DNA from: an uncultured Planctomycetota bacterium
GTDB taxonomy: Bacteria; Planctomycetota; Planctomycetia; Gemmatales; Gemmataceae
Direction of reading: 5' to 3'
DNA length: 64,000 bases
NCBI GenBank assembly: GCA_963849325.1
Contig: CAWKHF010000005.1
Coordinates: 448,001 to 512,000 of the forward strand
The translations under genes were made by a program, and so were the position numbers. This document shows, piece after piece, positions 19,671 to 49,133 of the stretch (within the stretch, counting starts at the first letter, position 1; each line of letters starts with the position of its first letter). The notes beneath the pieces were generated by a model. It worked only from the letters and a program-made list of their open reading frames with translations, was not told the DNA's origin and searched no databases.

Positions 19671-20696
19671 ATGCGCACGGCTCGCTTCGCTCTAGTCCTG
19701 CTGACGCTGCTCGTCCCGAGGGCCGAGCCGGACGAGAAGGCGCAAGCCGACGACATCCCCGTGGTGGGCCGGCCCAGCGATCTGCCTTTCAGCGAAGCCA
19801 GCGGATGGTTCACGGTACGAGCGCAGGCTGAACCGATCACCGTGGAAGCGGAAACGACCCTCACGTTCACGGTCTCGGTGCGCGCCACGCGCCCGGCGCG
19901 GCGGCCGCCGCAGCGGATCGACCTCCGCCAACTGCCGGCGTTCGCCGAGCGCTTTTACATCGAGGAACCCGGCAGCGACGAACCCGAGCGGCCCGATGAC
20001 CGCACCTGGGAGTTCCGCTACCGTCTCAAGCCGCGCCGCACCGGCGTGACCGAGATCCCCAGCGTGCCCTTCGTCTACTTCAACCCGTACCTGCGAACCG
20101 CCCGCAAGGGCTTCCAGGTCCTCTACACCGACCCCATCCCTCTGCACGTTCTGCCGCACGAAAGTGTACAGGTGCCCGTGCAGGCGCCGGACAACGCCTT
20201 CGTCCTCGCCACGGGGCCGAAACTGCTGGAGCGATGGACGACGTGGACGCCGGGAATCGGGACGAGCCTCGCCCTGTTGCTGGCGCCGCCGATTAGCTGC
20301 GTCCTCTGGTACGTCTGCTGGCGCCGGTTGTATCCGGACGCGGCGCGGCAGGCGAAGCAACGGCGCAGCCGCGCCGCCCGGCAGGCGTTGGCGCTGCTGT
20401 ACGCCGTGCGCCGGCTCGGCTCGGCCGAGCGCGCCACACGGACGGCCGCCATCGTGGCCGACTACCTGCGGCAGCGTCTCGACCTGGCCATCGCCGAACC
20501 GACGCCGGGCGAGGTCGCCGAGTTGTTCGCACAGCGGGGCCGTTCGCCGACGCTGGCCGAGCAGGCCGTCCGCTTCTTCGAGCAGTGCGACCGTCGTCGC
20601 TTCCTGCCGGCGTCCGGGACTACACAATCGGACCTGCCGGACATCGCCTCCCAGTTCATCCTCGCCGTGGAGGAAGGTGACAAGGTGACAAGGTGA
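19671..20696 (+). CDS. BatD-like protein
   Basis: Signal peptide; beta-rich domain (FRYRLKPRRTGVTEIPSVPFVYFNP); TM helix; position within the bat operon. Confidence 0.75.
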   Translation: MRTARFALVLLTLLVPRAEPDEKAQADDIPVVGRPSDLPFSEASGWFTVRAQAEPITVEAETTLTFTVSVRATRPARRPPQRIDLRQLPAFAERFYIEEPGSDEPERPDDRTWEFRYRLKPRRTGVTEIPSVPFVYFNPYLRTARKGFQVLYTDPIPLHVLPHESVQVPVQAPDNAFVLATGPKLLERWTTWTPGIGTSLALLLAPPISCVLWYVCWRRLYPDAARQAKQRRSRAARQALALLYAVRRLGSAERATRTAAIVADYLRQRLDLAIAEPTPGEVAELFAQRGRSPTLAEQAVRFFEQCDRRRFLPASGTTQSDLPDIASQFILAVEEGDKVTR

Positions 20697-20824
20697 CAAG
20701 GTGACAAGGTGAGAATTATGGCGGGAAAAGTAAACAATCAGCTACATCCGGAGTTGGGGAAGACTGGCTTCTGTCTTTGTCTCCTTGTCACCTTGTCACC
20801 TTGTCACCTTGTCACCTTGTCACC
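20674..20824. repeat. Inverted octamer arrays: (AAGGTGAC)x~5, spacer, (CCTTGTCA)x5
   Basis: 20674-20712 and 20783-20824 are reverse-complementary tandem arrays. Confidence 0.93.
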
Positions 20825-21560
20825 ATCAGAGGTGGCCGAGTGCGCCGTAAGTGCCTTTCAGGAGGGCGTGCGTCTGCGCCAGGCCGCGGACCAGGCTCGA
20901 CCGCACTTCCGCGCCGCCGCCGCCTCGTTTGACGAACTGCGTCGTCGCGGCGTCCACAATCCCGCTCTGTATCGCAACCTGGGCAATGCCTCCCTTCTGG
21001 CCGGCGACCTGCCTCGTGCCATCCTGTCCTACCATCGCGGTCTGCGTCTAGCGCCGAACGATCTCGCCCTGCGCGAGGGTCTCGCCGAGGCGCGCGAACG
21101 GGTGGTGTATCCGGCGTCGGGCAGCCTGGGCCGGCCGCTCAGCGATCCGCGCCCGCCGTGGCTACCGCAGCCGCGAACGGAGTGGCTGCTCACGGCGTCG
21201 GCCCTCTGCTACACGTTGGCGTGGACGTGGGCGACGCGCTGGCTGATGGTGCGCCGCGGCCGGCTGCTGGCCGGGGGAATGGTTGCCCTGCTGCTCGCCG
21301 GGCTGCTGTCGGTTTGGCTGCTCACGCTCACACGGGAGGAGAGGGACCGGGACGAGCATCCGCTGGTGGTGATCGCGCGCGACGGCGTTCGCCTGCGCCG
21401 CGGCAACGGCATGGTGTTTCCGGCGCGCTATGACACGCCGATCCCTCGCGGCGTCGAGGCGCGGCTGCGGTTCGAGCGCGGCGGTTGGGTGCGGATCGAG
21501 CTGTCCGGCGGCGAAATCGGCTGGGTGCCGCGCGACGCCGTGCTGGTGGACTCTCCTTGA
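20718..21560 (+). CDS. BatE-like TPR + TM + SH3b protein
   Basis: LYRNLGNASLLAGDLPRAILSYHRGLRLAP; two TM helices; C-terminal GWVRIELSGGEIGWVP. Start uncertain (GTG 20709 or ATG 20718). Confidence 0.8.
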   Translation: MAGKVNNQLHPELGKTGFCLCLLVTLSPCHLVTLSPSEVAECAVSAFQEGVRLRQAADQARPHFRAAAASFDELRRRGVHNPALYRNLGNASLLAGDLPRAILSYHRGLRLAPNDLALREGLAEARERVVYPASGSLGRPLSDPRPPWLPQPRTEWLLTASALCYTLAWTWATRWLMVRRGRLLAGGMVALLLAGLLSVWLLTLTREERDRDEHPLVVIARDGVRLRRGNGMVFPARYDTPIPRGVEARLRFERGGWVRIELSGGEIGWVPRDAVLVDSP

Positions 21561-21734: not shown

Positions 21735-23302
21735 ATGCCCGAAGTCCATCCGGAACGGCCGGCTCCCCATCTGCGGCACACGAGCGACCGGGAGATCCGC
21801 CGCTTGCTGGAGGTCATGCCGGCGGCGGCGTATACCTGCGACGCCGAAGGACTCATCACCTACTTCAACCGACGCGCGGTCGAGATTTGGGGGCGCGAGC
21901 CGACGGTGAACGATCCCATCGACCGCTACTGAGGCTCGTTCAAGCTCTTGACGATTGGTGGTTCACCAATCTTGCACGACCGCTGCTGGATGGCCCTGGC
22001 GCTCCGCGAGAACCAGGGCTACAACGAACAGGAAATCGTTATCGAGCGCCTCCGACGGCAGCCGCCGCACGGCCCTGGCCCATGCCAACCCCTTCTACGA
22101 CGAGTCCGGCCGGCTCGTCGGGGCCGTCAACATTCTTGTGGACATCACCGAGCGCAAAAAGGCGGAAGACGCCGTGCGCGAAGCCGATCGCCGCAAGAGC
22201 GAATTCCTGGCGCTGTTGGCCCATGAGCTGCGCAACCCCTTGGCTCCCCTCCGCAATGGCTTGCAGATCATGCGGCTGGCGAGCCACGACCGGACGGTTG
22301 CGGATCAGGCGCGGACCATGATGGAGCGCCAACTCGGACACATGGTTCGGCTCATCGACGACCTGCTCGACCTGTCGCGCATTACCAAGGGCAAGATCGA
22401 GCTGCGCAAAGAGCGGATCGATCTGGCGGCGGCGGTGCGCGACGCCGTGGAGACCAGCCGTCCCCTCATCGAGGCGTCCGGCCACCAGCTCACCGTCACG
22501 CTGCCGTCACGGCCGATCTTCGTGGATGCCGACCGCACTCGGCTGTCCCAGGTGTTCGCCAACCTGCTCAACAACAGCGCCAAGTACACCGATCGGGGCG
22601 GTCACATCGCGGCTGCGCGTCGAGCCGGAGGGCAGCGATGTCGTCGTCAAGGTCCGCGATGACGGCCTGGGCATCCCCGCCGACGTCTTGCCTGGTATTT
22701 TCGAGATGTTCACCCAGGTCGATCGCTCGCTGGAACGGTCGCAGGGCGGCCTGGGCATCGGACTGAGCCTGGTGCGTGCGTTGGTCGAGATGCACGGCGG
22801 CCGCGTGGACGCCCACAGCGGCGGTTGCGGAAGAGGAAGCGAGTTCGTTGTGCGCTTGCCCGTCTTGCTCTCGACCGCCCGAAAGACGCGGCCGGAGCAT
22901 GGCGCGGAGGAGGATGGGCATCGCTCCTCGAAATACCGTATCCTGATTGTGGACGACAACAAGGACTCGGCGATCAGCCTGGGTCTGATGCTGAAGATCA
23001 TGGGGCACGATACGCAAATGGCTCACGACGGCCTGGAAGGCGTGGCGATGGCGGCGGCGTTCCGGCCCGACGTGGTGCTGCTGGACATCGGCCTGCCGCG
23101 CTTGAACGGCTATGACGTTTGCCGCCGCATCCGCGAGCAGCCGGGCGGCGAGCGCGTGGTTATCCTCGCCCTGAGCGGCTGGGGCCAGGACGAGGACAAA
23201 CGCCGCTCCAAGGAAGCGGGCTTCAACTTTCACATGGTCAAGCCGGTAGACCCCGCCGAGCTGGAGAAGTTCCTGGCCGGACTGCTGCTGGCGCCGGCCT
23301 GA
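21735..23302 (+). CDS. PAS hybrid histidine kinase with receiver; in-frame TGA at 21930-21932; frameshifts near 22050 and 22612
   Basis: PAS (AAYTCDAEGLITYFNRRA..WGR); H-box LAHELRNPLAP; GGLGIGL; REC LLDIGLP. The ORFs starting at 21735 and 21948 share a frame across the TGA. Confidence 0.8.
21933..21981 (+). promoter_or_regulatory. Candidate bacterial SECIS-like stem-loop
   Basis: GATTGGTG-GTT-CACCAATC perfect hairpin (21953-21971) with its loop 28 nt after the UGA; possible lower stem TCGTTCAAG/CTTGCACGA. Confidence 0.35.
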
Positions 23303-23308
23303 GTCCTA

Positions 23309-23360
23309 TCCGAGCCTGAAGCGTGAGCGAAGATCTCTTCGCTTACGCTTCAGGCTCGGA
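23309..23360. repeat. REP-like palindrome, family A, copy 3
   Basis: Lies between convergent genes; encodes the last codons and stop of the MBL hydrolase. Confidence 0.9.
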
Positions 23361-24460: not shown

Positions 24461-24934
24461 ATGGCGTTCGACTCCCTGGCTCAGCGGCGCATCATGGGAC
24501 ACTTCGCCACCGGCGTCACGGTGGTGACGGCGTACCAAAATGGCGAAATCCAAGGAATGACGGCCAACGCGGTGACCTCGCTGTCGCTGCATCCGCCGCT
24601 GATCCTGGTGGCCGTGGGCAAGACGGCGGCCATGCACGCCACCCTCACGCAGAGCCGCTGTTTCGCCCTCAACATGCTCAGCGAAGAGCAAGAGCACCTG
24701 TCGCGCCGCTTCGCCATGCGCGGGGCCAAGGAAGTGAAAGACCTGACGTGGATTCATGCGGCCAGCGGCGCTCCGATCCTGGCCGACGCCCTGGCCTACG
24801 TCGATTGCCGGCTGACCGACATCCTGCCGGGCGGCGATCACGATATTTTCCTCGGCGAAATCCTGGCCGGCGACAGCCGCGACGGCGCGCCGCTGTTGTA
24901 CTTCGGCGGCAAATATCGACGCCTGGCCGAGTGA
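24461..24934 (+). CDS. Flavin reductase family protein
   Basis: FATGVTVVT, GMTANAVTSLSLHPPL, GGDHDIFLG, PLLYF; RBS AGGAGG. Confidence 0.92.
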   Translation: MAFDSLAQRRIMGHFATGVTVVTAYQNGEIQGMTANAVTSLSLHPPLILVAVGKTAAMHATLTQSRCFALNMLSEEQEHLSRRFAMRGAKEVKDLTWIHAASGAPILADALAYVDCRLTDILPGGDHDIFLGEILAGDSRDGAPLLYFGGKYRRLAE

Positions 24935-49077: not shown

Positions 49078-49133
49078 TCCGAGCCTGAAGCGTAAGCGAA
49101 GAGAAGATCCTTCGCTTACGCTTCAGGCTCGGA
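49078..49133. repeat. REP-like palindrome, family A, copy 4
   Basis: Same arms as the other family A copies; intergenic within the operon. Confidence 0.9.

Follow-up and report, generated by a model that had tools for sequence, protein, structure and literature searches.

Gene layout and the in-frame TGA

The stretch analyzed here, referred to as the window, comprises 64,000 nucleotides of an uncultured Planctomycetota bacterium of the family Gemmataceae (assembly GCA_963849325.1, contig CAWKHF010000005.1, positions 448,001 to 512,000, forward strand). It contains a gene for a hybrid sensor histidine kinase whose PAS domain carries an in-frame TGA, followed closely by a hairpin. An earlier note on this DNA, made from the letters alone, had proposed that the TGA encodes selenocysteine (Sec) in a PAS sensor kinase and that the hairpin resembles a selenocysteine insertion sequence (SECIS) element. 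The features of the gene are the following.

21735..23302, forward strand: hybrid sensor histidine kinase gene (PAS-HisKA-HATPase_c-REC), present as open reading frame (ORF) pieces with one in-frame TGA and two single-base insertions in the assembly
21807..22160, forward strand: PAS domain, with approximate limits transferred from the PAS_4 match of an orthologue (residues 35-151)
21930..21932, forward strand: TGA, putatively read as selenocysteine; all 100 aligned homologues have Cys or TGA in this column
21953..21971, forward strand: SECIS-type hairpin (stem 21953-21960, GUU loop 21961-21963, stem 21964-21971), encoding (T)IGGSPI
22051, forward strand: first frameshift, an extra base (T as aligned) relative to two orthologues, from the alignment
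22195..22389, forward strand: HisKA phospho-acceptor domain (Pfam, residues 49-113 of the window ORF piece)
22609, forward strand: second frameshift, an extra base (G as aligned) relative to two orthologues, within the HATPase domain, from the alignment
22616..22864, forward strand: C-terminal part of HATPase_c (Pfam, residues 2-84 of another ORF piece); the N-terminal part lies upstream of the second frameshift
22940..23269, forward strand: receiver (REC) domain (Pfam, residues 110-219 of the piece with HATPase_c)

Read from the ATG at 21735, the frame runs MPEVHPER...DPIDRY, meets the TGA at 21930-21932 and continues as GSFKLLTIGGSPILHDRCWMALAL, exactly as the earlier note had reported. Beyond the hairpin region, the kinase protein runs on in two other frames of the window. 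The two frameshifts that the note had described are likewise real features of this sequence, with extra bases near 22051 and 22609 in the alignment to the two orthologues.

Pfam identified PAS, HisKA, HATPase_c and receiver domains in the window ORF pieces, and the H-box is present. An intact orthologue of 529 amino acids matches all four families above the Pfam cut-offs, with PAS_4 at 39.3 bits (cut-off 23.1), HisKA at 58.7 bits, HATPase_c at 100 bits and Response_reg at 72.1 bits. The protein is a hybrid sensor histidine kinase, with a HisKA domain bearing the phospho-acceptor histidine, an HATPase_c domain and a receiver domain. Its sensor region is a PAS domain by a profile score above the cut-off and by the PAS fold predicted in an AlphaFold2 model. 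The Pfam result contains no transmembrane segments and no HPt domain, indicating a soluble kinase of the PAS-HisKA-HATPase-REC type. The kinase reached no NCBIfam equivalog; the ArcB model scored 196.8 bits against a cut-off of 838.

Conservation of the TGA column, the reading frame and the hairpin

As a first search, 41 related genomes were scanned in six frames using the PAS part as the query. Matches occurred in 11 genomes, and in five of these, the window genome included, the match held exactly one TGA. A Gemmataceae-wide search of 252 genomes (match threshold E <= 1e-25) gave 29 gene copies in 28 genomes. Ten copies, from ten genomes in seven genera, carry the TGA, and the remaining 19 do not. 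At the codon aligned to residue 66, the 29 copies read TGA (10), TGC (15) or TGT (4), with the TGA set in the motif DRY-TGA-GS(F).

The search was also carried to other phyla, using one genome per species across bacteria. The best 80 loci came from Gemmataceae, Pirellulaceae, Rubrobacteraceae, Gemmatimonadota, Chloroflexota, Rokubacteria, Acidobacteriota, Burkholderiales and others, and showed a Cys codon in 76 cases and TGA in four, a ratio skewed toward Cys by the fact that one of the two search patterns demanded a Cys codon. These four TGA loci duplicate loci already in the set. A further 400 Planctomycetota genomes yielded four matches at E <= 1e-22, with TGA in none. When metagenomes were scanned with a TGA-specific pattern, 120 loci came back, mostly chance matches, among which six encode this PAS domain with a TGA at the column; five are new and one duplicates a genome locus. 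The total of Sec-type genes is 15, ten from genomes and five from metagenomes.

Alignment of 100 homologues showed an almost invariant neighborhood of this column. Cys or Sec is present in all 100, followed by G in 100 and S in 99, while the second Cys, that of the CWMA motif, is found in 97, its W in 98 and its M in 98. His65 is present in 96 sequences and the Cys of an AYTCD motif in 94. The earlier note had given the subfamily motif as (F/W)CGS...C(P/W)MA. The Cys, the GS, the second Cys, the W and the M stand at 97 to 100 of 100, but the residue before the Cys or Sec is F in 63 sequences, Y in 33 and W in only four. This residue is Tyr in 14 of 14 Sec rows and, by subtraction, in 19 of 86 Cys rows. 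Homologues carry Cys at the putative Sec position (the 19 family copies and 76 of the 80 loci, with Cys or Sec at 100 of 100), and the TGA is kept in nine other genomes and five metagenome contigs, in line with the earlier proposal.

These data bear directly on one alternative, namely that the TGA arose through a sequencing error or through a nonsense mutation private to this genome, and that the window holds a broken Cys-type kinase. The assembly is indeed rich in indel errors, the gene has two frameshifts, and the TGA has no read cover in the sole listed sequencing run. However, the errors elsewhere in the assembly are indels rather than substitutions, the identical TGA column recurs in the nine other genomes and five further metagenome contigs, and the TGA is always accompanied by the hairpin and its rare codons. 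Because the same column holds TGA in so many genomes, it is not a base-call error, which answers this part of the earlier note's caveat, and we regard the error or nonsense explanation as hardly credible.

The reading frame after the TGA remains open for 453-539+ codons in eight of the nine other genomes and in one metagenome contig. The exception is G231 (10 contigs, 64% complete), where the frame ends after 135 codons. An H-box and a G2 box lie at conserved offsets in the post-TGA frame at five genome loci and in the metagenome contig; at locus L031 they lie 184 codons later than at the other loci, and a simple motif search found neither within the two long loci L025 and L037. Besides the short PAS-HK-REC architecture, longer multi-domain proteins also contain the Sec-PAS module. 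On the evidence of these frames, translation must continue past the TGA, and the in-frame UGA has predicted coding flanks that are conserved on both sides. Genome-wide reassignment of TGA was ruled out: several TGA-bearing kinase genes themselves terminate in TGA, which is therefore still an ordinary stop codon in Sec-form genomes.

Downstream of the TGA, the window contains the perfect 8-bp hairpin that the earlier note had described, formed by GATTGGTG (21953-21960), GTT (21961-21963) and CACCAATC (21964-21971). The hairpin begins 21 nt past the TGA and is contained in the minimum-energy structure predicted by RNAfold. Counted from the A of the TGA, the loop begins at 28 nt, again as described. 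The claim that its codons are unusual was also borne out. In a sample of 2,968 codons from seven gene segments of the window genome, with a G+C content at third positions (GC3) of 0.88, ATT accounts for 10.5% of Ile codons, GGT for 7% of Gly, TCA for 0.7% of Ser, CCA for 3.2% of Pro and TTG for 11% of Leu, so that the hairpin codons range from 0.7 to 11% of their amino acids.

The hairpin is conserved across the Sec-type genes. In each of the ten genomic Sec genes, a hairpin with a 7-9 bp stem and a GTT triloop starts 17-25 nt after the TGA, and all 15 Sec-type genes have a small-loop hairpin with a G, 17-25 nt after the TGA, with a GUU triloop in 14. The hairpin is near-identical in 13 of the 15. 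The L031 lineage uses a different stem, GACGGATC-GTT-GATCCGTC, placed 4 nt further downstream, and metagenome locus L223 has an L031-type stem with one mismatch and an AGTTG loop. In an orthologue with a one-codon deletion, the loop lies 3 nt nearer to the UGA. A perfect hairpin of this kind was found in none of the 19 family Cys genes, so the hairpin of the earlier proposal is present in every Sec form and perfect in no Cys form.

Covariation among the ten aligned genomic Sec genes further supports the helix. Its eight pairs are formed in 95% of cells, compared with only 25-69% when the 3' partner was slid by 1-3 columns as a control, and three of the eight pairs alter both sides in a compensatory manner, from U-A to C-G at two positions and from G-C to A-U. 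According to PMC1088965, a bacterial SECIS element is a stem-loop immediately 3' of the UGA whose apical loop is small and includes a G. Measured by that description, such a stem-loop is present in 10 of 10 genomic Sec genes, with covariation. The lower stem that had been suggested just after the codon fared differently. The arms TCGTTCAAG and CTTGCACGA can pair in the window with one mismatch, yet across the ten orthologues pairing holds in just 62.9% of cells and, for the three inner pairs, in 2 to 5 of 10, which leaves the lower stem unsupported.

A Cys-type gene retains what resembles a remnant of the element. In L022 (G089, codon at locus position 1620), an L012-type hairpin is intact apart from one G-to-A change, which breaks one pair and turns Gly into Asp. 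This hairpin is likely a fossil SECIS left after a switch from Sec to Cys; fossil SECIS elements have been described previously, as stated in a figure legend of PMC1794560.

Selenocysteine decoding weighed against other explanations

The window genome encodes the machinery for selenocysteine. We found selA (in three frame pieces), an adjoining SelB winged-helix domain, selD and a tRNA-Sec with the anticodon TCA, so the search for this machinery, on which the earlier proposal depended, came out positive for selA, selB, selD and tRNA-Sec alike. Across the family, selA is present in 28 of 28 genomes carrying the kinase gene; it is thus available in every Sec-form genome, yet does not separate Sec-form from Cys-form genomes.

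A family search also identified a canonical Sec-containing FdhA in the same genome (G000 C10:541153, outside the window), with the motif ARI-U-HSASVPGLG. Its hairpin, GGUGCCC-GGUCU-GGGCGCC, has a 7-bp stem and a GGUCU loop that starts 18 nt after the UGA. With its closing G-C pair opened, the kinase hairpin has the loop GGUUC, which starts with GGU as the FdhA loop does. A genome-wide scan for an open frame with TGA and a hairpin gave 468 matches in this genome of 65% G+C and was uninformative. The significance of the TGA and hairpin in the kinase gene comes from the comparison with related genomes, not from the window sequence alone.

The conserved TGA/Cys column, the conserved hairpin, the intact downstream frames in relatives and the Sec machinery together make it very probable that the gene encodes a soluble hybrid kinase (PAS-HisKA-HATPase-REC) in which the UGA at 21930-21932 is decoded as selenocysteine. 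The earlier proposal of a Sec-containing PAS kinase is supported by the homologue column, the conservation of the hairpin, the Sec machinery and frameshifts that match assembly-wide indels. By analogy with the known bacterial Sec pathway, SelB carrying Sec-tRNA(Sec) would bind the hairpin in the mRNA, which lies 21 nt 3' of the UGA and has its G-containing loop at 28 nt. It would then hand Sec to the ribosome, in the manner of other selenoprotein genes of bacteria.

A second alternative accepts the conservation of the UGA but not its decoding as Sec. The codon could be a regulated stop or a site of leaky read-through, with, for example, Trp or Cys inserted by a near-cognate tRNA and the hairpin acting as a signal for read-through or pausing. 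Alternatively, the downstream part could have a start of its own, for which the TTG at 21948 is a candidate. This explanation gains from the lack of a match between the hairpin and the SECIS models of Rfam, and from the fact that the case for selenium in the protein is built on sequence rather than on experimental demonstration. Against it stands the combination of a UGA at an invariant Cys column, a small-loop hairpin bearing a G, and selA, which is the accepted signature of bacterial selenoproteins as described in PMC1088965. A protein split at the UGA would, moreover, halve the PAS fold, and a canonical Sec gene of the same genome, FdhA, has a similar loop containing GGU. We consider a conserved but non-Sec UGA very improbable.

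The two frameshifts raise a different question, namely whether the family is a true selenoprotein family while the window copy is a pseudogene with real frameshifts. Two +1 insertions fall within 1.57 kb, neither of them in a long homopolymer. On the other hand, the essential genes rpoB and rpoC, as well as selA, are broken at the same density in this assembly, which consists of 14 contigs and is 84.7% complete. Both rpoB and rpoC lie in four frame pieces and selA in three (C1:334967-343005 and C12:1294197-1295291, outside the window), with about one break per kilobase in genes that pseudogenization cannot explain, or roughly one indel per kilobase of coding sequence. Two breaks in the 1.57-kb kinase gene are what this error rate predicts. 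In addition, apart from the extra bases, the ~140 nt around each frameshift track the two orthologues closely, with a mean column identity of 87-89% across the three sequences. The two frameshifts are probably assembly errors, and a pseudogene appears unlikely. Every frameshift in the window should be judged in the light of this assembly-wide indel rate.

Several points nevertheless weigh against Sec decoding in a functional kinase. Taken alone, the fold of the 71-nt region is unremarkable (z = -1.14, with 26 of 200 shuffles equal or better), and a permissive Rfam scan of 21850-22050 matched no SECIS family, its sole match being a chance snoRNA fragment. The sole listed run (0.06 of sampled words), beside which no RNA run was listed, has no read cover at 21905-21965 and contributes only fragments of other organisms' kinase domains at the locus, and the two frameshifts of the window's own copy are not provably errors, however well they fit the assembly. 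A single Sec clade was rejected by an approximately unbiased (AU) test (p = 0.0034) on a 49-row subset. The incorporation of selenium is inferred from sequence evidence, and the role of a redox switch is proposed from analogy.

The AU subset was made up of every Sec row (15), the complete set of 19 Cys rows from the family and, of the 67 other-taxon Cys rows in the tree, 15; the Sec and hairpin columns were dropped, the window row was cut to its first 90 residues, and L075, which has an extra stop, was removed. A quick PAS tree of 102 rows was poorly resolved and needed eight Sec/Cys changes. As the Sec forms are not one clade, several switches between Sec and Cys, or transfers, are needed. 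The near-identity of the hairpin in 13 of 15 Sec genes and the putative fossil hairpin in one Cys gene would fit a single gain followed by several Sec-to-Cys reversions or transfers.

With respect to gene context, Pfam assigned the neighbors of the kinase to a TPR protein, a metallo-beta-lactamase (MBL)-fold hydrolase and a flavin reductase, with one ORF left without a family. The flavin reductase-like gene (24461-24934; Pfam Flavin_Reduct, E = 1e-42) lies two genes past the kinase, and the MBL-fold hydrolase, on the opposite strand, sits between them. None of the window's four neighboring ORFs had a tblastn match beside the kinase gene in 18 Sec-type loci. The neighborhood is not conserved, and the gene context therefore offers no functional clue.

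Repeats were observed on both sides of the gene. Downstream, one further feature was recorded.

23310..23359, no strand assigned: palindrome of ~24 bp per arm, beginning 8 nt past the kinase stop codon

The 8.16-Mb genome holds 282 copies of its 23-letter core, counting both strands, and a related 15-letter motif has a copy at window position 49089. The palindrome is a member of a genome-wide repeat family resembling repetitive extragenic palindromic (REP) elements, and it may double as a terminator. Upstream, two runs of 8-nt tandem units in opposite orientation, (CAAGGTGA)n and (TCACCTTG)n at 20676-20706 and 20787-20825, flank ~80 bp at the start of the TPR gene and give rise to the odd peptide LVTLSPCHLVTLSP in the ORF lists. 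The 14-letter core of the unit occurs 87 times in the genome.

Proposed sensing role of the PAS domain and comparison with known systems

An AlphaFold2 model of an orthologous PAS domain (predicted local distance difference test score, pLDDT, 95.3) shows the PAS topology. In this model, the Sec residue is placed in a coil between a short helix (residues 45-47) and a strand (55-58), the stretch that the RNA hairpin encodes folds into an additional beta-hairpin (residues 55-63), and the second Cys lies at the start of a long helix (69-76). The coil position of Sec corresponds to the side of the cofactor pocket in LOV-type PAS domains. Foldseek returned 349 matches among PDB structures at E <= 0.001; among the matches listed, the top ranks were PAS and LOV domains, the best being LOV domains, the FAD-PAS domain of NifL and the cytoplasmic PAS domain of CitA (TM-scores 0.6-0.7, identity 14-21%). 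A profile search of PDB sequences gave only three weak PAS matches, with E-values of 0.003-0.01, and nothing closer.

Selenocysteine nearly always marks the position of a redox-active or metal-binding Cys, and for this reason we favor reversible oxidation of the selenol, with binding of a ligand or metal as the alternative. The abstract of PMC1794560 describes the same relation between Sec and such Cys positions. In the kinase, Sec would take the place of the single invariant Cys of a PAS subfamily that is widespread and has the motif D-R-(F/Y/W)-C-G-S-F ... H-x-x-C-W-M-A, and this Sec or Cys residue may provide the sensing chemistry of the domain. As the leading option, a reactive selenol or thiol would be reversibly oxidized, probably forming a selenenylsulfide whose partner would be the conserved Cys close by in the CWMA motif. 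Less likely, the residue could ligate a metal or cofactor. Either oxidation or ligation would alter autophosphorylation of the kinase.

Redox enzymes make up the great majority of known prokaryotic selenoproteins. The count in a 2026 review (PMC13188914) is more than 110 families, mostly thiol oxidoreductases; PSTK is the sole kinase in its main text, family table included, and neither a sensor nor a two-component protein occurs there. No sensor kinase or PAS protein appears among the selenoprotein families in PMC2398784 (the Global Ocean Sampling, GOS, selenoproteome), PMC1794560, PMC5029168, PMC12013277 or PMC13188914, and Table S9 of PMC4807772 has no entry for 'kinase', 'PAS' or 'sensor'. 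In PMC8318568, however, 'a histidine kinase' is named among unverified candidates of a SECIS scan in marine Deltaproteobacteria. The earlier description of an undescribed selenoprotein class therefore holds for PAS and sensor-kinase selenoproteins in the literature searched, but has to be qualified by this one unverified candidate.

The decoding of Sec is in itself ordinary; a sensor kinase as its host is a new functional class. Whether a broader proposal holds seems to us an even question: that this is the first sensor kinase with Sec as the signal-perceiving residue, that the invariant Cys of a large, uncharacterized PAS subfamily is a reactive sensing residue, either redox-active or ligand-reactive, and that Gemmataceae have exchanged sulfur for selenium to tune the sensor's reactivity or midpoint potential, with several later returns to sulfur. 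The assignment of the invariant Cys as a reactive sensing residue follows the usual logic of Sec/Cys pairs. If true, Sec in the PAS sensory domain of a histidine kinase would extend the use of this amino acid to signal perception. The subfamily, seen in Planctomycetota, Actinomycetota, Chloroflexota, Gemmatimonadota, Acidobacteriota, Pseudomonadota and other phyla, would gain a testable handle in the form of a known residue to mutate. In practical terms, gene callers will split or truncate the kinase gene at the TGA, and a genuine recoding signal can be recovered from an error-rich long-read assembly through comparison with relatives.

Among possible counterparts, the candidate of PMC8318568 is also a putative selenoprotein annotated as a histidine kinase, in a single sentence of that paper. 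It differs in belonging to another phylum and in having been predicted by a SECIS scan only, and its authors mark it as unverified.

FdhA of the same genome provides a close parallel at the level of decoding. Both genes have an in-frame UGA at a Cys/Sec column, with a coding hairpin right after it and a G in its small loop, and both depend on one set of selA, selB, selD and tRNA-Sec. The FdhA element has a 7-bp stem and a GGUCU loop 18 nt after the UGA, whereas that of the kinase has an 8-bp stem and a GUU loop at 28 nt. FdhA is a redox enzyme in which Sec ligates molybdenum; the kinase, in contrast, is a signal-transduction protein with its putative Sec in the sensor domain.

At the level of fold, LOV and other cofactor-binding PAS domains are the nearest solved structures. 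LOV domains use a reactive Cys, located in the equivalent helical region, to form an adduct with the flavin. Identity to the LOV structures that head the fold matches is only 14-21%. The PAS domain of the kinase has an extra beta-hairpin at residues 55-63, and its local motif, DRY-U-GSF, appears to differ from the flavin-binding motif of LOV domains.

A functional analog may be ArcB of E. coli. PMC8534201 describes several kinds of PAS-domain sensing, including a [4Fe-4S] cluster in NreB, Zn binding by the PAS domain of WalK and, in ArcB, the silencing of the kinase by quinones through disulfides at Cys180 and Cys241 of the PAS domain. Like ArcB, the protein described here is a hybrid kinase with a cytoplasmic PAS domain that carries conserved cysteines. 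Unlike ArcB, it is predicted to be soluble, without transmembrane segments or an HPt domain (Pfam); its score against the ArcB model falls far below the equivalog cut-off, in a match that misses the PAS domain; and one sulfur would be replaced by selenium. The kinase does not belong among ArcB-type thiol redox switches by these measures, and the likeness, given the conserved Cys pair, would be one of mechanism only. With that limit, the disulfide switch of ArcB may serve as a working model for the Sec/Cys pair of this PAS domain.

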